Source: a candidate division FCPU426 bacterium
GTDB taxonomy: Bacteria > Oederibacteriota > Muellerivitia > Muellerivitales > Muellerivitaceae
Direction: 5' to 3'
Length of the DNA: 64,000 nucleotides
Assembly (NCBI GenBank): GCA_963738405.1
Contig: CAVTWJ010000001.1
Span: forward strand, 1 to 64,000
Under the pieces are notes generated by a model. That model saw nothing but the letters and a program-made list of their open reading frames with translations. It was not told the DNA's origin and did no database searches. Positions 1 to 14,204 of this stretch are shown here, in pieces (the stretch's first letter is position 1; each line of letters opens with the position of its first letter). The translations under genes were made by a program, and so were the position numbers.

Positions 1-1299
1 GCCGGGCATTTCCGAATTTCAACTTTTGAAGAACTCATGAGCGCGGGAAGCGCCGCCGAGTCCCCGGCGGAAGAGGGGATAGAAAAAACAAAAAAAGACA
101 ACGCCCCGGAATCCGAAACCAGCCGTTTGGGCGACGTTTCCATCCGCATCAGCGTTGAAAAAATGGACGCCCTTTTGGAAGTGGTCGGGGAACTGGCCAT
201 CTGCCAATCCCAAGTTACCGAAGGGATCGCCGCCTCAGGAATATTGGGGCATTTGGCCTCCGAATCCTCCCGCTTGGGAAAGATATCCCGCCAGCTTCAG
301 GAAATCATCCTTTCACTGCGCATGGTGCCGGTCCACCCGCTTTTCCAGCGCATGTCCCGGTTGGGACGGGACCTGTCCAAGAAAACCGGAAAGCTTCTGC
401 GCGTTGAAGTGGAGGGCGGGGACACCGAATTGGACAAGCGCATGGTGGAGGAACTGGTAGACCCCTTGGTCCACCTTCTGCGCAACGCCGTTGATCACGG
501 CATCGAGGACGCCAAAAGCCGAAGCGAGGCAGGGAAAAACGCCGAGGCCCGCATCGGGCTCAAGGCCAGCCATCAGGGGGGCGATTTTATCCTCAGGGTG
601 GAAGACGACGGGGCGGGGTTGCCCTTGGAAAAAATGGCGAAAAAGGCCTTGGAACTCGGGCTTTTGCCCAAGGGAGAGATGACCCGCGAGCAGTTGATTG
701 ATCTGATCTTTCTACCAGGTTTTTCCACGGCCGATCACGTCACCGAAGTCTCCGGCCGGGGCGTGGGTATGGATGCCGTCCGGAAGAAAATCCACCTTCT
801 CAAGGGAACCATCCAGGTCGAGACGAACCAGGGGCAGGGAACGGCCTTTATCCTCCGTATTCCCCTCACGATGGCCTTGATTGACGGCATTTTGGTTCGG
901 GTGGGCCATTCGCGTTACATCCTTCCCGCCTTCAACGTCCTCCAATTCATGGCCTTAAAAGAAACACAAAAACACCAGGTTTCCTCCGGTTCCAGCTGGC
1001 TGACCACCGTTTCCGGGAACATTCCGGTGGTGGAGCTTTCCGATTGGTTCGGCTGCGGGACGCAAAAGTCTCCTCGGCCGGTGGTGGTGCATGTGGAAGT
1101 GGGCGGTAAGGAAGCATGTTTAGTGGTGGATGAGGTGATCGGCAAACAGCAGGTAGTGGTGAAGGGCCTGGGAGAGCATCTCCAAGGCATGCGGGGAGTG
1201 GCGGGCGGCGCCATTTTGGGGGACGGACAGGTGGGATTCATTATCGACTTAAACGCCCTTGTCCAAGGAAACGCCCCTTCTTTGGCGGCTGAAAATTAA
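1..1299 (+). CDS. cheA: Chemotaxis histidine kinase CheA (5' end lies outside the window)
   Basis: Frame open from base 1; dimerisation segment (SIRISVEKMDALLEVVGEL), HATPase boxes (HLLRNAVDHGIE, EDDGAG, IFLPGFST, SGRGVGMD), C-terminal CheW-like domain; Hpt domain not in window. Confidence 0.97.
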   Translation, partial: AGHFRISTFEELMSAGSAAESPAEEGIEKTKKDNAPESETSRLGDVSIRISVEKMDALLEVVGELAICQSQVTEGIAASGILGHLASESSRLGKISRQLQEIILSLRMVPVHPLFQRMSRLGRDLSKKTGKLLRVEVEGGDTELDKRMVEELVDPLVHLLRNAVDHGIEDAKSRSEAGKNAEARIGLKASHQGGDFILRVEDDGAGLPLEKMAKKALELGLLPKGEMTREQLIDLIFLPGFSTADHVTEVSGRGVGMDAVRKKIHLLKGTIQVETNQGQGTAFILRIPLTMALIDGILVRVGHSRYILPAFNVLQFMALKETQKHQVSSGSSWLTTVSGNIPVVELSDWFGCGTQKSPRPVVVHVEVGGKEACLVVDEVIGKQQVVVKGLGEHLQGMRGVAGGAILGDGQVGFIIDLNALVQGNAPSLAAEN

Positions 1300-1315
1300 A
1301 AACGGGAGACGTGAA

Positions 1316-1837
1316 ATGGCGGTGAATCAAATGGAAGTAAGGAACAATCAGCAAATGGAAGGGAGATACCTCCTTTTCTCGATCGGGCAAGAAACCTACG
1401 GGGTGGGAATCCACCGGGTCAGGGAAATCATAGGGCCGGTGGAACTTCAAGCCCTACCGGAGGCCTCGCCAACGATCGCGGGAGTCGTGACCTTAAGGGG
1501 AAAGACCATCCCCGTGGTGGATTTGAAAAGCAGGTTGGGTTTGGAACCGCAGGAAAGAACCGGCGGGAGTTGCGTGCTGACGGTTTTGGCCAAGGGCTGG
1601 GAGGGTCCCCTTTGGATGGGGATTCTGGTGGATGGAGTTCAGGAAGTCGTCCAAGTCCGGTCTAGCGACTTGGAGGAATTGCCGGAAATGGAAGAGGACC
1701 CGAGGAGCGAATGGCTCATGGGACTGGCGAAAACCCAGGACCGAATCGTTCTTTTGCTGGATGTGGATAGGGTCGCGAAAGAGGAAGAAGTCGAATCGGT
1801 TAAATATTCTTTAGGAGGCAGTCATGAAGCGCTTTGA
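1316..1837 (+). CDS. cheW: Chemotaxis coupling protein CheW
   Basis: YLLFSIGQETYGV..VREII, GVVTLRGKTIPVVDL, GILVDGVQEV; GGGAG SD before ATG 1316. Confidence 0.93.
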   Translation: MAVNQMEVRNNQQMEGRYLLFSIGQETYGVGIHRVREIIGPVELQALPEASPTIAGVVTLRGKTIPVVDLKSRLGLEPQERTGGSCVLTVLAKGWEGPLWMGILVDGVQEVVQVRSSDLEELPEMEEDPRSEWLMGLAKTQDRIVLLLDVDRVAKEEEVESVKYSLGGSHEAL

Positions 1838-4001
1838 AAATATTAAAGTTTTAACGGTTTTGGCACTCTGCATCTCTTGGGGGAGCTTTTCTCCCTTGGG
1901 GGCGGAAGGAATTCAGGCCGGGACTGTTTCTACCACCCAAACGCCTGCCGCCGGTTTGGCGACTAATCAGGATTTGACCACGGATAGCCTTCAGCAATTG
2001 ATGGGGCTCAACGTAATGGTGACTTCATCCTCTAAAAAGGCGGAATCCCTAAGGGACGCCACCTCCGCCATCTTTGTCATTACGCAGGAGGACATCCAGC
2101 GTAGCGGCGCCCAAACGGTTCCCGATCTCCTGGCGATGGTGCCGGGGGTGCAGGTGGCCCGTCAATCGGCCGACCAATGGGCCATCAGCGCCCGGGGTTT
2201 CAACGGCCAGTACAACAACAAGATGCTGGTCTTGGTCGATGGGCGCAGCGTCTATGACCCGGCCTTGGGCGGGGTGGCTTGGAACCAGCAGGACGTGATG
2301 CTGGAGGATGTGGACCATATCGAGGTCATCCGCGGTCCCGGCGGCACGCTTTGGGGCTCCAACGCCGTCAACGGCGTGGTGAACATCATCACCAAGGATT
2401 CCAAGGTGACCCAGGGGCTTTACCTTTCGGCGGGAGCGGGTTCCCCCCTCTATCCGTCGGGTGTTTCCGGCACAACCTCACTAAACGGGACCGGCGCCTT
2501 CCGCTACGGCGGTAAGTTCTCTGATGACTTGTACTACCGCCTTTACGGGCAGATGAACAACCAGAACAATTCCGCGAACCCCGGCGTGGACAGTTATGAA
2601 CAGTCCTTGGGAAATTCGTGGAACGACTCCTCCTACGACACCCGAGTGGGATTCCGGACCGATTGGCACGCCGATCAGGACAACTTGACCCTGGAAGCCG
2701 AGGCCCAAAAGGGCGTTTTCAACTACGCGCAGCTCACCAATAACGTGACCTCGGTGTTCGACCCGAACGCCTTCGCCCAGGTGAACGACCTGAACGCCGA
2801 CCTGGACCAGAACGCCCATGTGTTGGCCCGCTGGACGAGGGATTTCAAGGACGATTCCCAGATCCAGGTTTTGGCCTATTACGACTACAACAACTTGACC
2901 AAGGCCAATGACATGAGGATCACCAACGTGGGACAGGCGGACCTGGAGTTCCAGCACCGCTTTCATTTGGCCTCGGTCAACGAGATCACCTGGGGGGGAA
3001 GCTACCGGAACATTTCGGACCAGTTCTACAACCCCTTCAACCAGGATTATTCCCCCGAGAACCAGAATCTGAATATCTACTCGGGTTTCCTGCAGGACAA
3101 GCTGACGATCGAGGAAGGCCGGCTTTACCTCACCGGCGGGCTCAAGGCGGAAAACAACCCCTATACGGGAACCGAGTGGCAGCCTTCCGGCCGTCTCTTG
3201 TGGACGCCGGACGACACCAACAGCCTTTGGACGGCCGTTTCCCGTTCGGTCCGCATCCCGACCCAGTTTTCGGAAACAGCTTTCACCTACCTCTATGGGT
3301 TTCCGGCCGGAACCTTCGGCAACCCGGTCAATGTCTATGAAGGCGTGATTCCTAACTCAAGTTTGGTGGCGGAGACCCTCGTTTCCTACGAGTTGGGCTA
3401 TCGCACCAACCCCACACCGGATACCTCGGTAGACATCGCCAGCTTCTTCAACCATTACGACAACCTGATTTCGTTCCAGAACTATTACGGTCCGGCGGTA
3501 AATACCCCCAACGGGGGCGCGATGGATCCGTCCTATCTGACGGTCATCCAGCAGCAAAACACCGGGGCTGGGAATATCTGGGGCGTGGAATTGGCGGGCC
3601 AATGGAATCCGATTTCCTCGGTGAAGGTGAACCTGTCCTACACCTACCAGGGCTATGACCAGAACATGATCAACGCCTCCAACTCCGAACTAGGCGCGCC
3701 GCCGCCGCACAATTTGGCCAACGCGCGGGTTTATTTCGATCCCTTCCAGGGATTGGAATTGAACACCAGCTTCTACTACACCGACGCCACCTTCATGTAC
3801 GACCCCCAGTCGGGTAACACCATCACCAACAGCTATGTTCAATGGAATTTGGGGGCGACGGTAAAGCCCACGGATAACCTTGAGATCTCACTCTGGGGCC
3901 TGGATTTGGAAGGCGCCCATGTGGAGACCTTGAACACCGCTTTCACCTCGCCCGCCGAGGTGGTTCCGGCCATCGCGGGTAAAGTCGCGTTGAGTTACTA
4001 G
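1824..4001 (+). CDS. TonB-dependent outer-membrane receptor (YfiR-associated subfamily)
   Basis: Signal peptide; plug domain (VTSSSKK, VITQEDIQRSG, LVLVDGR, IEVIRGPGGTLWGSNAVNGVVNIITK); beta-barrel ending in aromatic residue (VALSY). Confidence 0.93.
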   Translation: MKRFENIKVLTVLALCISWGSFSPLGAEGIQAGTVSTTQTPAAGLATNQDLTTDSLQQLMGLNVMVTSSSKKAESLRDATSAIFVITQEDIQRSGAQTVPDLLAMVPGVQVARQSADQWAISARGFNGQYNNKMLVLVDGRSVYDPALGGVAWNQQDVMLEDVDHIEVIRGPGGTLWGSNAVNGVVNIITKDSKVTQGLYLSAGAGSPLYPSGVSGTTSLNGTGAFRYGGKFSDDLYYRLYGQMNNQNNSANPGVDSYEQSLGNSWNDSSYDTRVGFRTDWHADQDNLTLEAEAQKGVFNYAQLTNNVTSVFDPNAFAQVNDLNADLDQNAHVLARWTRDFKDDSQIQVLAYYDYNNLTKANDMRITNVGQADLEFQHRFHLASVNEITWGGSYRNISDQFYNPFNQDYSPENQNLNIYSGFLQDKLTIEEGRLYLTGGLKAENNPYTGTEWQPSGRLLWTPDDTNSLWTAVSRSVRIPTQFSETAFTYLYGFPAGTFGNPVNVYEGVIPNSSLVAETLVSYELGYRTNPTPDTSVDIASFFNHYDNLISFQNYYGPAVNTPNGGAMDPSYLTVIQQQNTGAGNIWGVELAGQWNPISSVKVNLSYTYQGYDQNMINASNSELGAPPPHNLANARVYFDPFQGLELNTSFYYTDATFMYDPQSGNTITNSYVQWNLGATVKPTDNLEISLWGLDLEGAHVETLNTAFTSPAEVVPAIAGKVALSY

Positions 4002-4021
4002 AACAAGCTTAAGAACGGTTC

Positions 4022-4050
4022 GGGCGGTGACCAACTTCTGGTCACCGCCC
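4022..4050 (+). terminator. GC-rich hairpin after the TBDR gene (terminator or RNA stability element)
   Basis: GGGCGGTGACCA-acttc-TGGTCACCGCCC, perfect 12-bp stem, no strong U tract. Confidence 0.45.
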
Positions 4051-4123
4051 AGAATCTGGACGGTGTGAAAAGAACCGTAAATGTTTAAAAGGCCGTTTTT
4101 AAACGAAATTTGAGTCGAAAAAT

Positions 4124-4140
4124 TTGGCACTTGGTTTGCG
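4124..4140 (+). promoter_or_regulatory. Sigma54 (-24/-12) promoter
   Basis: TTGGCACTTGGTTTGCG with GG (4126-27) N10 GC (4138-39), about 45 nt upstream of the yfiR-like start. Confidence 0.7.
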
Positions 4141-4186
4141 TTACATGAAACAGCTTTTGAAACTCACGAAAAACACGGAGTCGAAA

Positions 4187-4741
4187 ATGATCAAAAAACT
4201 CTCTCTCTTCTTAGGGTTGGTTCTTCTCTCCGCCGGTTCAGGGCCGGCGGTAGGGGAAGTCACCGAGTACGGGGTCAAGGCCGCCTATCTCTACAACTTT
4301 ACCCAGTTCGTTCAATGGCCCGCCGGGACCTTCGCGTCCGGCGACTCTCCCCTGGTCATCGGCATCCTCGGCGACGATCCCTTCGCCGGGGTCTTGGATG
4401 ACGCGGTCAAGGGCAAGACCGCCGGCGGCCATCCCTTGACGGTCAAAAGATTGGGGCCTTTCAAGCCCGGCAAAAGCGCACTCCTGGCCAAATGCCAGAT
4501 TCTCTTCATCGCTTACTCGGAAAAGGACCAACTGCATGAAATTTTGAAATCCCTCTCGGGGGCCCCGACGCTGAGCGTTTCGGAGATCGAGAATTTCCCC
4601 CTCAAGGGAGGGCTGGTCCAGTTCGATCAGGAAGGTCAAAAAATCTCGGTCGTTCTCAACAATGAGGCGGCCGTCAAGGCGGGATTGTCCATCAGTTCCC
4701 AACTGCTTCAAGTTGTGAAACTTTACAAGGCGGAGGAGTAG
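4187..4741 (+). CDS. YfiR family (DUF4154) periplasmic protein
   Basis: Signal peptide; EYGVKAAYLYNFTQFVQWP, IGILGDDPF, CQILFI, AGLSISSQLL; GGAG SD. Confidence 0.9.
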   Translation: MIKKLSLFLGLVLLSAGSGPAVGEVTEYGVKAAYLYNFTQFVQWPAGTFASGDSPLVIGILGDDPFAGVLDDAVKGKTAGGHPLTVKRLGPFKPGKSALLAKCQILFIAYSEKDQLHEILKSLSGAPTLSVSEIENFPLKGGLVQFDQEGQKISVVLNNEAAVKAGLSISSQLLQVVKLYKAEE

Positions 4742-4744
4742 TTC

Positions 4745-6253
4745 ATGAATAAGTCCCAATCCAATGGGTTGTCGCTGAGGGTGAAGATCATGGGAATTAC
4801 GCTGGTTTCCACCACGCTGTCCCTTTTACTGGCGGCCTTGATCCTGATGCTGAACGAAAAGGCAACCTTCCCCAAGGTGATGGCGGGAAACCTTTCCAAC
4901 CTGGCCCAGGTGGTTGGGGCCAACAGCATCGCGGCCCTGACCTTTAACGATGTCAGCACCGCGGAAAACAACCTGGAAACCTTGAAAAGCAATCCCCACA
5001 TTTTGGGAGCTTGTTTCTACGACGCGAAGGGGCAGCTATTCGCGCAGTTTCGCCAGGACGCAAAGGATTCGGAGGCCTTCCCCCCGGTCAAGGATGAGGG
5101 TTTCGAAATTTCCAACGGCACCGTGAAATTGTTCCGCGAAATCCGTATGGGAAGCGATTTAAAGGGCACCCTTTATCTTGAGTCGGACATGAAGGAAATG
5201 AACGAGCGGATGGCGGGTTACACCCGTTCCCTGGGGCTGGTGCTGGTGCTTTCCCTCGTCGCCGCCTTCCTCATCGCCGCCGGGCTTCAACACCAGGTTT
5301 CCGGCCCTTTAAAGCAAATCATCGAAGGCCTGAGCGACAGCGCCGATCAGATGGCTTCCAGCTCTTCCCAAATTTCAACCGCCAGCCAGCAGATGTCCGA
5401 GGGCGCGACCGAATCAGCCAGCGTCCTTGAAGAAACCAGCGCCTCTTTAGAGGAAATCGCATCCATGACACGGCAGAACGCCGAGAACGCGGGACAAGCC
5501 GCCCAATTTATGACCGAGTCCCGACAATTGATTCATCAAGGAAACCAGGCTGTGGCAAGTACCGTGAAATCCATGAGAGACACCAAGGAAAGCGCGGAGA
5601 AAGTAACCAAGATCATCAAGACTATCGAGGAAATCGCCTTTCAAACGAACTTGTTGGCTTTGAACGCCGCAGTTGAGGCGGCCCGGGCCGGTGAGCATGG
5701 CAGGGGCTTTGCGGTGGTGGCGGAGGAAGTTCGCAACCTGGCCCAGCGCAGCGCCGTGGCGGCCAAGGATTCGGCTTCCCTGATCGAGGAAAACGCCCAA
5801 AAGGTCACCGGCGGGGTTCAGGTGAGCGAGGAAGCGGGAAAGGTCTTGTCGGACATCGTGACGCAGGCCGCGAAGGTTTCGGACCTGGTTCAGGGCATCG
5901 CCGGGGCCAGCGAGGAACAATCTAAGGGCATCGGCGAGGTGAACCTAGCGGTCTCCCAAATGGACAAGGTAACCCAGCGCAACAGCTCCAACGCCGAGGA
6001 ATTGTCGGCCTCCAGCGAGGAACTTTCAAGCCAGGCCAAAACCATCCGGGAGATGGTGAACAAATTGGTCGCGGTTCTGGAGGGCGGCAAGGCCCATTCA
6101 TCTTCCAACGATTCCCGTGAAACCGACCCCCAAGGCGTCCGTCAAACATTTTCTCGTCCTGGCGCTACCCGGTTCCAAGGCGCTTTTTCCGCCTCTGCTC
6201 AGGAAACCGCCTATTCACCCAAACCCTTAGCCTCTATTGGTGGCCGGATCTAA
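4745..6253 (+). CDS. Methyl-accepting chemotaxis protein with CHASE8 (YfiN-type) periplasmic sensor
   Basis: TM1, [11 protein letters not shown]...[22 protein letters not shown] (CHASE8-like), TM2, MCP tip [40 protein letters not shown]. Confidence 0.92.
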
Positions 6254-6286
6254 GGGCATTCGAAAGTCATTCCTAAAGGGGAAAAA

Positions 6287-6496
6287 ATGTTGAAAAGAAA
6301 ATTAAAAATTAAGGAAGGGGAAACGCCGAAACCCAAGGCTGAAGGCGAGGCTGTGAAGCTGAAGTTGGTTTCGGTTGAGCAAAAAAAGGAAGAAAGCCTT
6401 CATCAGCCTGGAATCATTTTTTCCGGACTGAAATCGAAATTATCTTCCGAGGAGCTTCTTAAACAGTTGGGGGGAGACACGCCCGAAAGCCGGTAA
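6287..6496 (+). CDS. Small Lys/Glu-rich hypothetical protein
   Basis: 69-aa ORF with AAGGGG SD, fills the gap between MCP and cheW. Confidence 0.5.
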   Translation: MLKRKLKIKEGETPKPKAEGEAVKLKLVSVEQKKEESLHQPGIIFSGLKSKLSSEELLKQLGGDTPESR

Positions 6497-6544
6497 GGGC
6501 GTCTCAGGGCAGCCGGACATCGAAAAGACGAAAAGGAGTCAAGC

Positions 6545-7069
6545 ATGGAGACAACGCTGAAGAAGGTGGAGGGGAAATACCTGACGTTCCGCCTGGGCCG
6601 GGAAGAATACGCCCTGGAAATCCTGAAGGTCCGGGAAATCGTGGCCATGATGGAAGTTACATCTGTGCCGCTGACCGCCCTGCATATCCGGGGAGTCGTC
6701 AATCTGCGGGGAAAGATTATCCCCGTGGTGGACATGAGGAAAAAATTCTCTCTTCCGGACGCCGATAGCACCCGGGACACCTGCATCATCACCGCCATGG
6801 TAGAAGGCAACGAGGGTGAAGTCTTGACTGGCTTCCTGGTAGATGGGGTCAACGAGGTCATTCAAGTGGCCGCTTCCGAGGTGGAGCCGGTTCCGGCACT
6901 CGGCGAAGACATGCGGTTGGATTTTGTGATGGGACTTTCCAAGACCAAGGGACGGGTTATCGTTCTTTTGGACATGGACAAGGTCATGCAGGGCCAGGAA
7001 TTTAAACAGCTTCAGGAACTGGAGCAAATCACTCAGGACCTTCAAACGTCCGCAACCAAGGAGGCGTAA
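6545..7069 (+). CDS. cheW: Chemotaxis coupling protein CheW (second copy)
   Basis: KYLTFRLGREEYALEILKVREI, GVVNLRGKIIPVVDMR; AAGGAG SD. Confidence 0.95.
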   Translation: METTLKKVEGKYLTFRLGREEYALEILKVREIVAMMEVTSVPLTALHIRGVVNLRGKIIPVVDMRKKFSLPDADSTRDTCIITAMVEGNEGEVLTGFLVDGVNEVIQVAASEVEPVPALGEDMRLDFVMGLSKTKGRVIVLLDMDKVMQGQEFKQLQELEQITQDLQTSATKEA

Positions 7070-7072
7070 ATC

Positions 7073-8701
7073 ATGAATTTTAATAGGATGAAATTAGACA
7101 CGAAGTTGGTGGGATCTTCGATTTTGGTTGCGGTTCTCATGCTGGTTTTTTTCGCTCAATTCTTAACCCTTTTGCGTTCAGCCAGCAAAGGATTGGATCA
7201 GGTGGTGAAGGCAAGCCAGGCGATTCGGCTGGCCCAGGATCTGGATAACAATTTCCAATTGGCTGTTTCAAAGGGAAAGGACGTGGCCATCGTCAAGGAT
7301 CAGCACCACAAAGACGTGACCATGACCTACCTCAAAAACGCCCAGGATGCCTTGGGGGAACTTCAAAAGGCTGAGACGGATGGAGATGAACAGGAATTCC
7401 TCAAAAAACTGGGGGAACAGTTAACGAGTGTCGGGGCCAAGCTTACGACCTTGACTCAACAGCCGATCGATAAGATTCCCGCCTTGGATCTTTATACGAA
7501 CTATTTAAAGGACATTACCATCGAGTTTGATAATTCCAGTAAGACTTATGAAACCCTGTTAAATAAAAAAGTTCAGGATTCCCAAGAGGCGGTCATCGCC
7601 CAAATCGACCGTGGGCAGATCGTCGGCATCACCATTGTCCTGCTGGTTTTGGGGGGCATTCTGATGAATTTAATGATTTCTCTCGGTGTCGCGAGAACCC
7701 TGCGCAAATTGACCCGGGATTTGATTGAAAGCGCCAACCAGGTGGCCTCGGCTTCCGCCATGTCCTCTTCCGCCAGCCAGCAGTTGGCCGAAGGCGCGGG
7801 CGAATCGGCCTCCAGCCTGGAAGAAACCAGCTCGTCGCTCGAGGAAATGGCTTCCATGACCCGCCAGAACGCTGAAAACGCGGTCCGGGCGACCCGGATG
7901 GTGGATGAAACGCGCCAGAGGGTATTGCAGGGCAATGAGGCGGTGGAACAGACCGTCAAGTCGATGAAAGAAACCAACGAAAGCGCCGAAAAGATATCCA
8001 AGATCATCAAGACCATCGAGGAGATCGCCTTTCAAACCAATCTTTTGGCTTTGAACGCGGCGGTGGAAGCGGCCCGGGCAGGTGAGCATGGTCGCGGATT
8101 CGCGGTGGTGGCGGAAGAGGTCCGTAATTTGGCCCATCGTAGCGCCACGGCGGCCAAGGATACCTCGGCCTTGATTGAGGAAAACGCAAGACGCGTCTCC
8201 TTGGGTGTCAAGGTGAGCGAGGAAGCCGGAAAAACTCTTTTTGAAATCGTGGAAAGCACGAAAAAAGTTTCCAATCTGGTGGATGAAATCGCCTCCGCCA
8301 GCAAGGAACAGTCCAAGGGCATCGAGGAAATCAACACCGCCGTGGCCCAGATGGACAAAGTGACCCAGCGCAACACGGCGAACGCCGAAGAACTGGCATC
8401 CTCCAGCGAGGAATTGACGGGACAGGCCCAGATGCTCAAGGACATGGTGATTCAATTGGCGGTCCTGCCTGAGGGAAATAACGGCCAAGACAGTTTGAGC
8501 CAGGGTTTCTTGAATCATGATGCCAGAATTGCCGCCAAGTCTCCGGCCATCCATGTGCCGCATTTTAAACCCGCCCAGATTCCCTCTGGAAACGGACATG
8601 ACAAACTGAACAAGGCGCGTAAAGTTTTGGCCTACGCGGCCTCCAAGGCTTCCCCCGAGGAAGTGATTCCGCTGGGGCAGGATGAATTGAAGGACTTTTA
8701 A
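7073..8701 (+). CDS. Methyl-accepting chemotaxis protein, helical periplasmic sensor, C-terminal pentapeptide-like tail
   Basis: Two TMs, helical periplasmic domain, MCP signalling tip, linker ending [15 protein letters not shown]. Confidence 0.95.
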
Positions 8702-8703
8702 TC

Positions 8704-9543
8704 ATGGAAGGCTTGGCCATGGAATTAAAACCCGCGGATTTCCAGCGTTTTTCCCAGATGGTGCACCAGCACAGCGGCATCCATCTGGGAACGATGAAAT
8801 CGGAACTTCTGCGGGCCCGCCTGGCCAAGCGCATGAGGGCCCTTTCCCTCTCGTCTTTCAGCGAGTACTACCAAACGGTGCTGGAGGATGAAACGGGAGA
8901 GGAACTGGCCCGCATGCTGGATGTGGTGACGACCAATAAAACCGAGTTTTTCAGGGAGGACAAGCACTTCTCGATCCTGACGCAAAAGCTGATGCCTGAG
9001 CTGATCAGGGGGGCGGCCCTTCGCTCCGATAAAACCCTGCGGATCTGGTGCTCGGCCTGCTCCTCGGGTGAGGAAGCCTACACCCTGGGGATGTGTGCCC
9101 TGGAGGCGGCGGCGGGAAAGGATGTGAGGGTCAAGATCCTGGCCACCGACCTGTCGAGCCGGATGATTCACCGGGCCGTGAAGGGCGTTTACGAGAAGGA
9201 AAAGACCCAAGGGGTTCCCCCATCGCTTTTGCAGAAGTATTTCGAGGCGGAAGGGAAGGGGCAGGAGAGGGTTTACCGGGCCGGGCAGGCTTTGAGGGAC
9301 GTGATCCTGTTTCACCGGTTCAACCTCAATGCCGGCCCCTTTCCCTTTCGCAACCCTTTTGACGTCATTTTTTGCCGGAATGTCATGATTTATTTTGACC
9401 AGCCGGTCCAGCAGGATTTGGTGGGGCGGATGGCGGGAGCCTTGAGGACCGGCGGTTACTTTTTCACGGGGCTCGCGGAAAGCCTGCTGGCTATCCAACA
9501 TTCCCTGCGGTCCGTGGCCTCGTCCGTGTACGTGAAACCCTGA
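8704..9543 (+). CDS. cheR: Chemoreceptor methyltransferase CheR
   Basis: TTNKTEFFRE, IWCSACSSGEEAY, ILATDLS, FDVIFCRNVMIYFD; alternative start 8719. Confidence 0.96.
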   Translation: MEGLAMELKPADFQRFSQMVHQHSGIHLGTMKSELLRARLAKRMRALSLSSFSEYYQTVLEDETGEELARMLDVVTTNKTEFFREDKHFSILTQKLMPELIRGAALRSDKTLRIWCSACSSGEEAYTLGMCALEAAAGKDVRVKILATDLSSRMIHRAVKGVYEKEKTQGVPPSLLQKYFEAEGKGQERVYRAGQALRDVILFHRFNLNAGPFPFRNPFDVIFCRNVMIYFDQPVQQDLVGRMAGALRTGGYFFTGLAESLLAIQHSLRSVASSVYVKP

Positions 9544-10094
9544 TGGGAAAAGGAACTGTGAATGCCTCAGTCGGCAAGCCGGAAGGAAGATCGATGACCT
9601 ATCAGCCGGGATTAAGAACCATCGTCATCGGGGTGGGGGACTATTACGTCAGTAGGGACAAGCTGGACCTGCTGGTGACCTACGCCTTGGGTTCCTGTGT
9701 GGGCGTGACGGCTTATGACGTCAAGGCGGGGGTGGGGGGGATTTTGCATTTCAAGCTTCCCCATTCGGATCTGAACCCCGATATGGCGAAGGCCAATCCG
9801 GCCCTTTTTGGCGACACGGGATTGGAGGCTTTTTTGAGGCATCTGTTTCAACTGGGGGCCACCAAGCCTTATTTGGAAATCAAATTGGCGGGCGGCGCCA
9901 AATCCCTCGGGAACGCGGGGGCGTTTTTCAACATTGGAGAAAGAAACCTGCTGATCGCCCAGCGGTTCTTTTGGATGAACGGGCTGATGGTTTCCCGAAA
10001 GGAAATCGGCGGCAGCGATTACCGAACGGTGAAGTTGGAGATGGAAACGGGGAGGGTCACCGTGAAGGACCCCCGCGAGACGTACGAAATTTAG
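9543..10094 (+). CDS. cheD: Chemoreceptor glutamine deamidase CheD
   Basis: LVTYALGSCVGV, GGILHFKLP, KLAGGA, NIGERN; alternative start 9594. Confidence 0.94.
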   Translation: MGKGTVNASVGKPEGRSMTYQPGLRTIVIGVGDYYVSRDKLDLLVTYALGSCVGVTAYDVKAGVGGILHFKLPHSDLNPDMAKANPALFGDTGLEAFLRHLFQLGATKPYLEIKLAGGAKSLGNAGAFFNIGERNLLIAQRFFWMNGLMVSRKEIGGSDYRTVKLEMETGRVTVKDPRETYEI

Positions 10095-10112
10095 ATAAAC
10101 AGGAGAAAGAAG

Positions 10113-10508
10113 ATGGCATTTAATTTTTTGGTTGTGGACGATTCGTCCACGAGCCGCGGGATCGTGAAAAAAACGCTGAAGCTTACCCGGCTGCCCCTGG
10201 GTGAGATTTGGGAAGCCGCCAACGGGCGGGAGGGGCTGGAACAGATGCGCCGTAATTGGGTGGATCTGGTTCTGGCGGATTTGAACATGCCGGACATGAC
10301 CGGACAGGAAATGATCGCCGAGATGGCCAAAGACCCTCTCCTGGCCAAATTGCAGGTGGTGGTGGTGAGCTCAGAGGGAAGCCAGTCGGTTTTGGACTCG
10401 CTTTTCAAACAGGGCATCAAAGAAGTAGTGCGTAAACCCTTCGAGCCCGCCCTTTTAAGGGGCGTGATCGAAAAGGCCCTGGAAATCCCGGGCGGAGCCA
10501 ATGAATAA
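10113..10508 (+). CDS. cheY: Single-domain response regulator, CheY-like
   Basis: LVVDDS, DLNMPDMTG, VSSE, KPF. Confidence 0.85.
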   Translation: MAFNFLVVDDSSTSRGIVKKTLKLTRLPLGEIWEAANGREGLEQMRRNWVDLVLADLNMPDMTGQEMIAEMAKDPLLAKLQVVVVSSEGSQSVLDSLFKQGIKEVVRKPFEPALLRGVIEKALEIPGGANE

Positions 10509-10530
10509 CCCCCCCTACCGGAGATTAGCG

Positions 10531-11583
10531 ATGGCGACTATTCGGGTCTTGATCGTGGATGATTCAGCCTTTGTTCGGAAGGCCCTCAGCGTGTTTTTCA
10601 AGGCGGAGGGTTTGGAGGTGGTGGGGGTGGCTTCCAATCCCTACGAGGCCCGCGACCTGATCGTCAAGCTGCAGCCGGACATCCTCACCTTGGATTTGGA
10701 AATGCCCCGCATGGACGGGTTGACCTTTTTAGACCGTCTGATGACCCACCGGCCCATGCCGGTCGTGATTTTTTCCAGCTTCACGGACAAAAACAGCGCC
10801 TTGGCCCTGAAGGCCTTGGAATTGGGCGCCGTGGAGGTTTTGGAAAAGCCCACGAGCGGAAATTTTGGGCCCCTGATGATTCGGTTAGTGCGTGTTTTGA
10901 AAGAAACCGCCATGGCCAAGCCCAGGCGCAAAAGATTGGTTCTGGTGCCCCAGTCCAAGACGGACGGGTCAGGAAAACCCAGCAGGGTGATCGGGGCCAT
11001 CGGCGCCTCCACGGGCGGTACGGACGCCTTGTCGGAGGTTTTAAGGGGGCTCCCGGCCGACCATCCGGGCCTGGTGTTGGTTCAGCATATGCCGGCTTTC
11101 TTTACAGCCGATTTCGCCGCCCGATTGGACCGCGGAAGCGCCATGAAAGTAAGAGAGGCGAAAAGCGGCGATGTGATCCAGGACGGCCTGGTGCTGGTGG
11201 CCCGGGGCGACCGGCACATGGTGGTGGATCGGGATGGCGGGAAGTTTCGCGTGAATTGCCCCATAGGACCCATGGTGAACCATTGCCGGCCGAGCGTGGA
11301 TGTTCTTTTCCATTCGGTGGCTAGGTCCGCGGGGCCCAACGCCGTCGGGGTCATCCTCACGGGGATGGGACATGACGGCGCGGGCGGGCTCCTGGCGATG
11401 AGGGAAGCCGGCGCCGTGACCCTGGCCCAAGACGAGGCCACCAGCGTGGTTTATGGAATGCCCAAGGAAGCCAGGGCTCGCGGAGCCGTGGACGAGGTAG
11501 TGCCGTTGCACCTGATGGCCGACGCCCTTCAGGCAAAAATTAGGGGAGTCGTGGAACGATTAGATGGGAGGACCCAATGGTAA
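10531..11583 (+). CDS. cheB: Chemoreceptor methylesterase CheB
   Basis: N-terminal REC (IVDDS, LDLEMPRMDG) plus GASTGG, VQHMP, RPSVDVLF, LTGMGHDGA; alternative start 10501. Confidence 0.97.
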   Translation: MATIRVLIVDDSAFVRKALSVFFKAEGLEVVGVASNPYEARDLIVKLQPDILTLDLEMPRMDGLTFLDRLMTHRPMPVVIFSSFTDKNSALALKALELGAVEVLEKPTSGNFGPLMIRLVRVLKETAMAKPRRKRLVLVPQSKTDGSGKPSRVIGAIGASTGGTDALSEVLRGLPADHPGLVLVQHMPAFFTADFAARLDRGSAMKVREAKSGDVIQDGLVLVARGDRHMVVDRDGGKFRVNCPIGPMVNHCRPSVDVLFHSVARSAGPNAVGVILTGMGHDGAGGLLAMREAGAVTLAQDEATSVVYGMPKEARARGAVDEVVPLHLMADALQAKIRGVVERLDGRTQW

Positions 11584-12377
11584 AGATAGACAAAAAAACA
11601 ATCCTGGTGGCGGACGCGAACAGCACCGCCCGGAAGCTCCTGGCGGTCAGGCTTCAAAGCATGGAATACGAAACCGCCGAGGCTGGAAACGCCGAGGAAA
11701 TGGAGAAACTGCTCGCCAGCCAAACATTCGATCTGGCCATCTCGGACCTGAAACTGCCGGGCGAGGGCGGCGAGGATGTCATGAAAAAACTCCAGGCTAA
11801 AAGAACCCCGATATTCGTTTTCACGGACCGGGTTCAACAGGAAGGTCAGGAAATGATGAGTGAGCCTTCCGTGAAGGCGGTGTTTCACAAGTCTCAGCGG
11901 TCCGAGATGCTGTTGCGTATCGACGATCATTTCAGGACCGTTCCCGAGAAGCGTGCCGAGGGGGAGGCTAAGGACCTGCAAATGCTTCTCATTGAGGATT
12001 CGCCGACCATCCGCGGTTTTCTGAAACGCATCATGCTGAAGCATTTTCCCGGCTCGGTGATCCGGGAGGCGGAGGATGGGCGCCAAGCCATGTCGGAAAT
12101 GTCGAACAAGAGGGTTGATTTCATTGTCACGGATCTCCAGATGCCCGGAATGGACGGCCAGACCTTCCTCAAGATCTTGCACGGCAACCCGGTTTTGAAA
12201 AACAAACCCGTGTTGGTGCTTTCCGGCTCCTTTACCGCGCAGTTGAAAGAGGAGTTGAAAGCCTATCCCACCGTCCGGACTTTGGCGAAACCTTCCTCGG
12301 AAGAGGAAATCGCCCGAACGATCAGAGATTTAATGATGACGACTGAAGCAATGCCCCGCCTAGTGGGCGGAGAATAA
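11577..12377 (+). CDS. Tandem REC-REC response regulator with no output domain
   Basis: REC1 (ILVADAN, ISDLKLPG), REC2 (LLIEDS, VTDLQMPGMDG, LAKP). Confidence 0.88.
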   Translation: MVKIDKKTILVADANSTARKLLAVRLQSMEYETAEAGNAEEMEKLLASQTFDLAISDLKLPGEGGEDVMKKLQAKRTPIFVFTDRVQQEGQEMMSEPSVKAVFHKSQRSEMLLRIDDHFRTVPEKRAEGEAKDLQMLLIEDSPTIRGFLKRIMLKHFPGSVIREAEDGRQAMSEMSNKRVDFIVTDLQMPGMDGQTFLKILHGNPVLKNKPVLVLSGSFTAQLKEELKAYPTVRTLAKPSSEEEIARTIRDLMMTTEAMPRLVGGE

Positions 12378-12385
12378 GAGAGGAA

Positions 12386-12712
12386 ATGATGGACAGCACG
12401 AAAAGCTTTTACTTGGATTTGGAGGAAGAACTTCACACATTGACATCCCATTTTCTCCTGTGCGAGGGCGCGTTGGATGCGGAGGTGGTGGATTGGGCCC
12501 GGTTTTATGTTCGATGGGCCGAGAAGTCGGCTAAAAAATGCGGACCCTGGAGCAAGGTTTGTTTGGAACACGCCCGCAATATTTTGCAGGCCTTGGAAAA
12601 CTCCCAAAAAGGGAAAGAGGGTTACGCGGCCCTGGGCACGGCGATGCAGACGGCCTCCCAAAAACTGGCCACGGAAATCAAAGGAAGTTTGTTGGTGGAG
12701 GTTTGGAAATAA
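12386..12712 (+). CDS. Hypothetical helical protein at the end of the che operon
   Basis: 108-aa ORF with GAGG SD directly after the REC-REC gene. Confidence 0.65.
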   Translation: MMDSTKSFYLDLEEELHTLTSHFLLCEGALDAEVVDWARFYVRWAEKSAKKCGPWSKVCLEHARNILQALENSQKGKEGYAALGTAMQTASQKLATEIKGSLLVEVWK

Positions 12713-12911
12713 ACCCATGGATGTTCGACATGGATGCCACACAAGAGCTAAAAAGACTTTTTAGGACAAAAAAACAACAGTTTCGCATTTGGAATTTGTT
12801 TTAGCGGCTAGGTTTAAGCAAAAAAAAGGGTTAAAAGACCCTCGAACTGCAGAGAAAAACGTTAAAATAGAATCTGATATATTTATTAGCGGATGCGAAA
12901 TGGGGAATTAG

Positions 12912-14204
12912 GTGAATCCACAAATGTCATTTACCGCCGACTATAGTGATATCGATTTAAAAGTTCTCCTCGATAAAGAATTGATCGAAGTCCACTTCCA
13001 GCCGATTTTTTCCATCCGTGAGAAAATGGTCGTGGGTTTTGAAGGGCTTTCCCGGGGCATCCATCCCGTTTCCGGAAAACTGATTCCTCCGCTTCCCTTA
13101 ATGAAGATGGCGCGGGAAGCCGATTTGACGCTCGAGCTGGACCGCCTCATGCGGAAAAAAATACTGCAAAGCTTCAGCCAGTTCTGTCCCCAACCCCATG
13201 AATTGATTCTGACCCTTAATTTTGAGACCTCCATCATCGACAAGGAAATCGGGTCCCTTCAATTGATCCAATTAGCCCGCCAGCTCAACTTGAACCCCGC
13301 CAACATCGTCATCGAAATACTTGAGTCCAGGATCAAAAACGTGGAAGCCTTGGCCAAATTCGTCAAGATCCACCGCGAGAACGGGTTCCTGGTGGCTTTG
13401 GATGATGTGGGAAAGGGCCACTCCAATTTTGACCGCATTCCGGTGATCCAGCCCGACCTCATCAAGATCGACCGTTCTCTGGTGACGAATCTTCAGGATG
13501 ATTACTACCGCCAGGAAATCTTCAAATCCATTGTCCGCTTGTCCCAAAAAATCGGGGCGGTTGTTTTGGCGGAGGGCGTGGAAACGGAAGAGGAAGCGCT
13601 GGAATCCCTCGATCTAGGCGCCGATTTGCTCCAGGGGTTCTTTTTTTCACCCCCTCAGGAGCCGAGTCTGGATTACGTGAATCTGGTCACCCATGTCATT
13701 GATCCCTTGGCGAACAAGTTTAAGAAGCGCATGGTGGAAAAGTTGAATATCCGCAAAATCCAGCATGAGCGGTACGGCCTGATGATTGAGACTTTGGTGA
13801 GTGATTTGAGCCAACAGGAAGATAAGCAGTTACAGGATAAATTAACCCATGCCCTGGCGAATCATTCCATCGCGGAGGCGCTTTATGTGCTTGATGACCA
13901 GGGGCTCCAAATTACGCCCTTGATCTGCAAAATGGGCCCCAAGGTCCGAAAGGGCATTTTTCGCATGCCGCCCCTGGGAACGGACTATTCCACGAGGGAT
14001 TTTTATTATGTCCTGATGGATAGCGGGTTCAGCCGGGAGTCCTTCACGAGTGAGCCCTACATTTCCCCGGCTACCGGGGTTTTTTGCATGACAATTTCGA
14101 CAAGGTACAAGGATAGGAGGGGAAAAACTAAAATCCTCTGCGCGGACGTGATCCCGAGCTACTTGAAAAACATGGGCAAGTTGATGGCCCTCTTTATGGA
14201 TTGA
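12912..14204 (+). CDS. EAL-domain c-di-GMP phosphodiesterase with C-terminal Cache-like domain (YkuI-like)
   Basis: FQPI, EGL, IEILES, ALDDVGKGHSNF, KIDRS, AEGVET, QGFFF; C-terminal DYSTRDFY..SEPYISPATG. Confidence 0.9.
   Translation: MNPQMSFTADYSDIDLKVLLDKELIEVHFQPIFSIREKMVVGFEGLSRGIHPVSGKLIPPLPLMKMAREADLTLELDRLMRKKILQSFSQFCPQPHELILTLNFETSIIDKEIGSLQLIQLARQLNLNPANIVIEILESRIKNVEALAKFVKIHRENGFLVALDDVGKGHSNFDRIPVIQPDLIKIDRSLVTNLQDDYYRQEIFKSIVRLSQKIGAVVLAEGVETEEEALESLDLGADLLQGFFFSPPQEPSLDYVNLVTHVIDPLANKFKKRMVEKLNIRKIQHERYGLMIETLVSDLSQQEDKQLQDKLTHALANHSIAEALYVLDDQGLQITPLICKMGPKVRKGIFRMPPLGTDYSTRDFYYVLMDSGFSRESFTSEPYISPATGVFCMTISTRYKDRRGKTKILCADVIPSYLKNMGKLMALFMD

Follow-up and report, generated by a model that had tools for sequence, protein, structure and literature searches.

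A che operon encloses genes for a receptor, a YfiR-like protein and a CHASE8 chemoreceptor

The DNA analyzed here, referred to below as the window, comprises positions 1 to 64000 of contig CAVTWJ010000001.1 (C1) in the genome of an uncultured soil bacterium (GCA_963738405.1, G000), and positions are those of the window unless stated otherwise. Near its beginning, inside an operon of chemosensory (che) genes, a single strand (+) carries in succession the genes for a TonB-dependent receptor of 725 amino acids (TOL_0244 type; 1824..4001), a YfiR-like protein of 184 amino acids with a signal peptide (TOL_0243 type; 4187..4741) and a methyl-accepting chemotaxis protein (MCP) of 502 amino acids with a CHASE8 sensor domain (4745..6253). 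This trio is flanked by two cheW genes. Domains were called by a Pfam scan of 13 proteins, in which matches with E values up to 0.01 were listed, and the identities given in a first-pass annotation of this DNA (TonB-dependent receptor, YfiR-family protein, CHASE8-like MCP and CheW) all scored above the Pfam cutoffs. Thus, the receptor matched Plug with 85 bits and the barrel with 111 bits, the YfiR-like protein matched DUF4154 with 130.6 bits (cutoff, 24.9; scored on the open reading frame 4124-4741), and the first CheW (1259..1837, + strand) matched its family with 109 bits. For its part, the chemoreceptor rendered 51.2 bits for CHASE8 (cutoff, 27; a partial match) and 161 bits for MCPsignal.

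The ATG of the receptor gene (1824), preceded by AGGAGG, lies 14 nt inside cheW (stop at 1835-1837), which is the overlap reported at first, and the ATG of the MCP gene (4745) starts 3 nt past the yfiR-like stop (end at 4741). The three genes had been described as contiguous between the two cheW genes; their position between these genes stands, but they are not strictly contiguous, given that a spacer of 185 nt (4002-4186) separates the receptor gene from yfiR. The start of the yfiR-like gene also had to be moved: rather than TTG 4124, as first assigned, the true start is probably ATG 4187, which follows ACGGAG and yields the signal peptide MIKKLSLFLGLVLLSAG.

The chemoreceptor combines a trio sensor with a resident signaling domain

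The MCP consists of a first transmembrane segment (TM1), a periplasmic PAS/Cache-like domain, a second transmembrane segment (TM2) and the MCP signaling domain. Its CHASE8 match covers only profile positions 6-69 of 102. The NCBIfam model for the sensor histidine kinases of such trios, NF053592, matched with 150.6 bits over profile positions 1-184 of 223 and did not reach its cutoff of 194 because the HAMP part is missing; the DgcN/YfiN model gave 42 bits (cutoff of 325 not reached). No full HAMP domain is present, and after TM2 a short helix (PLKQIIEGL) leads directly into the signaling domain. The Pfam scan found no HisKA, HATPase, GGDEF or cytoplasmic ligand-binding domain in this protein. 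A structural model of the sensor (predicted local distance difference test score [pLDDT] of 84.3) predicted a single PAS/Cache-like domain, with a long helix (residues 11-60), two shorter ones (62-66 and 70-82), five strands and a final helix running into TM2 (150-189), and resembled the extracellular domains of WalK, a LapD orthologue (4u64, the second-best fold match), CitA and DctB. In this model, residues 47-95 (4883..5029, + strand), conserved in sensors with partners (see below), form the membrane-distal helices and the first strand.

The signaling half of the CHASE8-MCP is 69% identical, ungapped, to that of the second MCP of the operon (7073..8701, + strand; MCPsignal, 175 bits) and at most 44% identical to those of the genome's five other MCPs. 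The likeness to the second MCP starts at TM2, from where identity amounts to 63% over 291 amino acids without gaps, and in the sensor tree the sensor falls within the family's short-kinase group. To judge from this likeness from TM2 onward, the gene is a chimera of a trio sensor and a copy of the signaling half of the resident chemoreceptor, and both MCPs should therefore fit the same CheA/CheW array.

The YfiR-like protein is only remotely related to YfiR

The YfiR-like protein reached the cutoff of NF053591, the TOL_0243 family (134.3 bits; cutoff, 125), and not that of NF053586, the true YfiR family (22.1 bits; cutoff, 85). Its profile matched the solved Pseudomonas aeruginosa YfiR at an E value of 2e-6, with the C-terminal helix included, and the AlphaFold2 model (pLDDT, 90.3) had P. 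aeruginosa YfiR chains as its top fold matches (template-modeling scores of 0.64/0.79; 17-18% identity). These were followed by a Rhodothermus substrate-binding protein (score of about 0.5) and related binding-protein lobes. Across 29 YfiR-like sequences there is a single nearly invariant cysteine (C103), and the two disulfides of YfiR are not matched. The motifs GxLGxDPF and EYxVKAAYLFNF are invariant, whereas true YfiR lacks both.

A search for the YfiR-like domain in longer proteins gave 4 matches among 8,000 scored candidates; no fusion to a receptor or to CHASE8 was found among these candidates, which is weak evidence. In three proteins of 578-590 amino acids (P0026, P0027 and P0028), a DUF4154/YfiR domain precedes HisKA and HATPase and is the only recognized extracytoplasmic domain. 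A YfiR domain can therefore itself be the extracytoplasmic sensor domain of a kinase.

Trio receptors share a peptide next to the TonB box

The best NCBIfam model for the receptor was NF053590 (476.4 bits; its cutoff of 645 was not reached), and the next model rendered 111 bits. The closest solved structure by sequence was Cir. The receptor has a Plug, a barrel region and a predicted TonB box, its profile aligning with Cir from chain residue 9 onward over a stretch that includes V-x-V-T-S. Among Pfam matches at E values up to 0.01 only Plug and barrel were present, with no STN domain, and Pfam recognized no sigma or anti-sigma family among the 13 proteins scanned.

In all 29 full-length trio receptors aligned, a variable N terminus rich in Pro, Thr, Ser and Ala is followed by a conserved peptide, which in the window is DLTTDSLQQLMGLNVMVTS (residues 50-68; 1971..2027, + strand). 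Its consensus in the clade of the window is DLTxxSLExLxGL(N/D)VxVTS, which continues into the TonB box. The NF053590 match begins within the peptide, at residue 51, and Cir aligns only from the TonB box (V-x-V-T-S) onward and not over the peptide. Within the genome, the peptide is confined to two of the seven Plug-bearing frames, both of which encode trio receptors; four frames encode TonB_C. In some trios (L121:12607-16866 and L224), two tandem receptor paralogues precede a single YfiR-like gene, which suggests several outer-membrane inputs to one sensor.

The trio is conserved within the bacterial family

A search with the sensor domain of the window was performed on 60 relatives, 30 genomes from the same family and 30 from other families of the phylum. 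Matches were obtained in 27 of the 30 other family genomes and in none of the 30 from other families, and Pfam CHASE8 exceeded its cutoff in 30 of 99 genomes of the phylum. The family count amounted to 40 sensor genes in 31 genomes, 38 in other genomes plus 2 in that of the window, and their loci were mapped with the proteins of the window as queries and with Pfam spot checks. A YfiR-like gene was located directly upstream of the sensor gene in 36 of the 40 loci (in L130, in the same frame as the sensor), and in 35 of these 36 the receptor gene was also found upstream, some receptor genes being split or cut by contig ends. Neither partner was present at L127 and L145, the receptor was missing at L150, and L134 was uninformative because the contig ends there. 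In most loci, yfiR and the sensor gene are spaced by -3 to 6 nt, the window having 3 nt, which points to translational coupling.

Of the family sensors, 27 are histidine kinases, 11 are MCPs and 2 are truncated. The CHASE8-MCPs come from 8 of the 31 genomes; every one of them is flanked by che genes, and all but one (10 of 11) have retained the two partner genes. The linkage proposed in the first-pass annotation is thus conserved in other genomes, and it was also found on an unrelated contig (L157; see below). Two operon layouts were observed in the family: that of the window, CheA-CheW-receptor-YfiR-MCP-CheW-(MCP)-CheR-CheD-CheY-CheB, and a second one, in L124, L125 and L130, with the order CheA-CheW-receptor-YfiR-MCP-CheY-CheB-CheR.

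The genome of the window holds a second trio about 95 kb away (L005), in which the receptor and YfiR-like genes are accompanied by those for a CHASE8-HAMP histidine kinase and a response regulator; identities to the proteins of the window are 45% for the receptor, 52% for the YfiR-like protein and 41% for the sensor. The YfiR-like frame of this second trio (L005:7100-7714, corresponding to about 99100-99713 of the contig, outside the window) opens 62 nt past the receptor stop. Its first ATG, GTG or TTG start (MPVLGQ...) would drop the signal peptide, and the in-frame codons upstream encode the signal-peptide-like stretch KNAKNYILAFLLTAG but include none of these three codons, so the gene may have an unusual or a damaged start codon.

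The trees of sensors, YfiR-like proteins and receptors each set the long-kinase trios apart from a group made up of short-kinase and MCP trios, and in the receptor tree both sides of this split had a support of 100. The arrangement is far beyond chance, and the three genes travel together and diverge together.

The sensors that have no partners point to a candidate surface for binding of the YfiR-like protein. In 21 partnered sensors, the identity of residues 47-95 to the consensus had a mean of 0.73 and a minimum of 0.61, whereas it fell to 0.45 in the L127 sensor (an MCP) and to 0.29 in that of L145 (a kinase). In the other three sensor regions, L127 remained within the range of the partnered sensors. 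Such a decay after partner loss fits a partner-binding surface, although only two sensors are concerned. The L127 sensor scored 29 bits for CHASE8, versus 51-71 for the others, and had a long branch. Its gene (L127:7444-9512, G004) follows cheW directly in a che operon, without a receptor or yfiR gene.

Two further loci were set aside. At L130 (10492-12597, - strand; G006), yfiR and the CHASE8-MCP share one frame of 701 amino acids, in which the C terminus of YfiR is altered; it was rejected as a true (Rosetta-stone) fusion because the order signal peptide, YfiR and TM1 would place the sensor in the cytoplasm, and it is probably a frameshift in the assembly. Only sensor and receptor fragments were found in the che operon of L149 (G018), which was counted as degenerate.

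Chemoreceptor outputs are rare and arose at least twice

A profile built from 37 sensors retrieved 16,760 clusters (50% identity) at E values up to 0.001 and 3,564 at E values up to 1e-30. Outputs were typed in the best 150 of the 16,760 clusters, kinases being recognized by local seeds. These included 78 kinases, 4 MCPs, 3 GGDEF-bearing proteins and 1 cyclase/Ser-Thr-kinase oddity, while 29 clusters were too short to be typed. The remaining 35 comprised many with Pfam kinase domains and others with only PAS, GAF or HAMP, or with CHASE8 alone. One protein of unusual architecture (P0033, 961 amino acids) has an adenylate/guanylate cyclase and a Ser/Thr protein kinase followed by CHASE8 at residues 566-667.

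An independent metagenome sample of 80 loci was obtained by a scan with the YfiR-like alignment and evaluated by scripted criteria. The receptor was directly upstream in 43 of the 49 informative loci (on the same strand in 41), the CHASE8 sensor was directly downstream in 56 of 59, and the full trio was present in 35 of 42. The outputs were 47 kinases and 1 MCP among 48 typed, with 23 further loci undetermined. That such trios usually end in a kinase or in GGDEF/EAL, as had been stated in the first-pass annotation, is in agreement with 27 kinases versus 11 MCPs in the family, 47 versus 1 in the metagenome sample and 3 GGDEF proteins in the best 150 clusters. Thus, a chemoreceptor output is rare for this sensor (4 of the 150 nearest clusters and 1 of the 48 typed metagenome loci).

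The single metagenome MCP, that of L157, lies in a che operon of a third layout, in which Pfam recognized CheR-TPR, CheW, receptor, YfiR-like protein, CHASE8-HAMP-MCP, MCP, CheA-REC and CheB in this order. MCP-type sensors therefore sit in three che-operon layouts, those of the window, of L124/L125/L130 and of L157. In a sensor tree of 88 rows, they fell on both sides of a split with a support of 100; therefore, the MCP output was acquired at least twice. A locus search with the full-length MCP alignment was discarded, since its patterns came from the universal MCP hairpin and it returned 78 unrelated MCP loci.

Other features of the operon and its surroundings

The spacer between the receptor and yfiR genes folds at -56.7 kcal/mol (z = -3.35), and none of 200 shuffles was equally stable. 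RNA folding of 4002-4186 located a GC-rich hairpin at 4017..4056 (+ strand), with a perfect 12-bp GC stem whose 12-nt core is unique in the genome. It has no T-run and was not called a terminator in a terminator scan, and a promoter/terminator scan of positions 1-13000 gave sites no more frequently than in shuffles. The hairpin may act in RNA processing or stability and thereby tune the ratio of receptor to YfiR. In relatives such as L116, the spacer is only about 20 nt long.

Upstream of the trio, the operon opens with the 3' part of cheA (1..1299, + strand; dimerization, ATPase and CheW-like regions by Pfam H-kinase_dim, HATPase_c and CheW), the 5' end of which is cut by the contig start. 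Downstream of it, after a gap of 291 nt without an assigned gene (6254-6544), come the second cheW (6545..7069, + strand; CheW, 116 bits), the second MCP gene and, at 8704..12377 (+ strand), cheR, cheD, cheY, cheB and a double-receiver gene (Pfam CheR, CheD, Response_reg and CheB_methylest). Some 530 nt past the che operon, a gene (12912-14204) encodes an EAL (cyclic di-GMP phosphodiesterase) domain and, after it, a weak dCache-like region; this gene could link the pathway to cyclic di-GMP. Genome-wide, there are frames for seven MCPs, three CheA proteins and a FliG. A search of sequencing runs for the source found no RNA run and only small shares in the soil-metagenome DNA runs of one study.

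Relation to known systems

The trio is catalogued in NCBIfam as NF053590 (TOL_0244 receptor), NF053591 (TOL_0243 YfiR-like protein) and NF053592 (sensor histidine kinase, YfiR-like protein-associated). The window agrees with this trio in gene families, gene order and strand; the trio models were the best family-specific matches of its receptor and sensor, and its YfiR-like protein passes the cutoff. However, its output is an MCP domain in a che operon and not a histidine kinase, its receptor and sensor stay under the curated cutoffs, and the HAMP part of the sensor is absent.

In YfiBNR and its relatives TpbB, AwsXRO and HmsCDE (Pseudomonas, Escherichia coli and Yersinia), as in the window, the gene for a periplasmic DUF4154 protein lies beside that for a CHASE8 (YfiN-type) inner-membrane protein, together with an outer-membrane partner. 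In the window, however, a 22-strand TonB-dependent receptor stands in place of an OmpA/Pal-like lipoprotein, the output domain is that of an MCP and not GGDEF, there is no full HAMP domain, and the YfiR-like protein lacks the disulfide cysteines of YfiR. Pfam found no OmpA/Pal-like YfiB in the operon of the window, the rest of the genome not having been searched for YfiB. In the crystallographic study of YfiB-YfiR, the Cys145-Cys152 disulfide of YfiR is described as essential, and the extended N-terminal loop of YfiB puts hydrophobic anchors into a C-terminal pocket of YfiR that overlaps the proposed YfiN site (PMC4887326). According to Malone et al. 2012 (PMC3375315), YfiR pulls down YfiN, and a core of YfiR and YfiN[PAS/HAMP] was proposed as a module with variable outputs, MCP domains among them; MCP outputs of YfiR/YfiN-like pairs were noted there in silico, in one sentence. 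The literature library searched gave no description of a TonB-dependent receptor coupled to a YfiR-like protein or of the NCBIfam trio. Hence the statement in the first-pass annotation that no characterized example is known holds in so far as none was found there, but the trio itself is catalogued and MCP outputs had been mentioned (PMC3375315).

The trio also resembles FecA-FecR-FecI, FpvA and PupB, since a TonB-dependent receptor is encoded with a periplasm-facing signaling partner and has a conserved N-terminal segment before the TonB box. It differs from them in that the receptor has no STN domain, the operon has no anti-sigma factor or extracytoplasmic function sigma factor, and the relay proposed below would be soluble, with a chemoreceptor as its output. 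A soluble periplasmic protein docks on the periplasmic domain of a chemoreceptor in MBP-Tar, RBP/GBP-Trg and DppA-Tap of E. coli. The YfiR-like protein would act on the chemoreceptor of the window trio in a comparable way. The fold of this protein is another one, though, the sensor is PAS/Cache-like and not a four-helix bundle, and the partner genes lie inside the che operon.

We conclude that the trio of the window is a real, conserved and rare variant of a YfiBNR-like module, for which a role as a relay is suggested by analogy. The NCBIfam catalogue of the trio and the mention of MCP outputs by Malone et al. were already known. What is new here are the family-wide counts, the chimeric origin of the MCP, the fusion of MCPs on at least two independent occasions and in three layouts, a receptor peptide that is genome-specific and the decay of the sensor surface after partner loss.

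A proposed relay across the envelope and its alternatives

The best explanation for these observations is that the trio is one portable envelope sensor, which in the window is plugged into a chemosensory pathway. Within this frame, we see roughly even chances for a three-part relay, modeled on YfiBNR, in which the YfiR-like protein would set the state of the MCP via CHASE8 and the receptor would control, through its peptide, the supply of YfiR-like protein. The first-pass annotation, the interpretation of which is partly supported, had already given the YfiB role to the receptor and supposed that the signal need not reach the periplasm; both points are hypothetical. By homology with YfiR-YfiN, the YfiR-like protein would bind CHASE8 at its membrane-distal N-terminal portion (about residues 47-95) and lock the MCP in one signaling state; by analogy with YfiB and FecA-type transducers, the receptor would set the amount of free YfiR-like protein. 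Ligand binding and release of the TonB box would expose the adjoining peptide DLTxxSLxxLMGLNV in the periplasm. This peptide, a candidate for the role that the N-terminal loop plays in YfiB, would capture the YfiR-like protein and release the MCP. The change would pass via TM2 into the HAMP-less signaling domain, the CHASE8-MCP and the second MCP would signal to a common CheA/CheW, adaptation being provided by CheR, CheB and CheD, and the output may be flagellar or other. The full version, in which the receptor acts as the primary chemoreceptor, so that a surface ligand releases the TonB box, the peptide captures the YfiR-like shuttle and the MCP is switched, is more tentative, and we would sooner doubt it than assume it.

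Several observations weigh against such a relay. The kinship between the YfiR-like protein and true YfiR is remote (22 bits for NF053586, 17-18% identity, one conserved cysteine); therefore, the mechanism of YfiR is carried over by analogy. Linked genes share a history, so codivergence alone is no proof of contact, and the partner-loss argument rests on two sensors (L127 and L145). Pairs without a receptor exist (L150 and 6 of the 49 informative metagenome loci); together with the partnerless L127 MCP in its che operon, they imply that the sensor may signal without partners. The conserved receptor peptide could instead serve a dedicated TonB, and the 185-nt hairpin spacer may uncouple the expression of receptor and yfiR. 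Finally, the CHASE8 match of the window is partial, and the HAMP domain of the kinase versions is missing.

The main alternative keeps the contact between the YfiR-like protein and the MCP and dispenses with that between the receptor and the YfiR-like protein. The receptor would be a TonB-driven importer of a scarce or bulky compound, which the YfiR-like protein would bind, and either its liganded or its free form would dock on CHASE8 like MBP on Tar, so that the signal would indeed enter the periplasm. In common with genuine transporters, the receptor retains a TonB box together with complete plug and barrel domains, and Cir is its closest solved relative; the fold matches of the YfiR-like model that come after YfiR are the Rhodothermus substrate-binding protein and binding-protein lobes; the invariant motifs GxLGxDPF and EYxVKAAYLFNF, absent from true YfiR, could line a ligand site; and three proteins have a YfiR domain as the only recognized extracytoplasmic domain of a kinase. 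In addition, P. aeruginosa YfiR binds vitamin B6 and L-Trp in the pocket used by YfiB, but only weakly, with reported affinities of tens of millimolar (PMC4887326). An importer would leave unexplained the family-specific peptide beside the TonB box in every trio receptor, and no inner-membrane transporter gene accompanies the trio in the mapped operons. We consider this reading rather unlikely.

It is also conceivable that only the YfiR-like protein and CHASE8 signal, for instance in response to periplasmic folding or envelope state, and that the receptor is a coexpressed nutrient transporter. The receptor-less pairs of L150 and of the 6 metagenome loci would be in accordance with this, as would the hairpin spacer that parts the receptor gene from yfiR in the window and the many YfiN-YfiR pairs without YfiB found by Malone et al. 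2012 (PMC3375315). However, the receptor is kept in 35 of the 36 YfiR-bearing family loci and in 43 of the 49 informative metagenome loci, with few exceptions immediately upstream and in the same orientation, and because its gene is so consistently retained, a passenger role is improbable. Moreover, the receptor tree mirrors the deep split of the sensor and YfiR-like trees, L127 lost the receptor and the YfiR-like gene together, and the NCBIfam receptor family is defined by this very neighborhood. Control might also run from the inside out: the periplasmic domain of the MCP would then be an output that binds or lets go of the YfiR-like protein depending on how the cytoplasmic array is set, and the receptor would be gated in this way, much as LapD acts through LapG. 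The second-best fold match of the sensor model was indeed an output domain, the periplasmic one of a LapD orthologue (4u64), but the same sensor is mostly found on histidine kinases with cognate response regulators, which are input-to-output devices, and the MCP has no cytoplasmic ligand-binding domain; we regard this last possibility as hardly credible.

Significance

To our knowledge, all characterized bacterial chemoreceptors sense the contents of the periplasm or the cytoplasm. If an outer-membrane receptor signals to a chemoreceptor via a soluble shuttle, cells could steer or switch behavior on bulky or scarce surface compounds. In the full version of the relay, with the receptor as the primary chemoreceptor, the operon of the window would be the first chemosensory pathway to respond to compounds that never enter the periplasm. 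It would also represent a second class of TonB-dependent trans-envelope signaling, independent of sigma/anti-sigma pairs. The finding extends the YfiBNR principle to a different outer-membrane partner. The sensor family is very large (16,760 clusters), and its chemoreceptor variants offer a convenient readout, by CheA activity or Förster resonance energy transfer with chimeric receptors, of how signaling works in the whole family.

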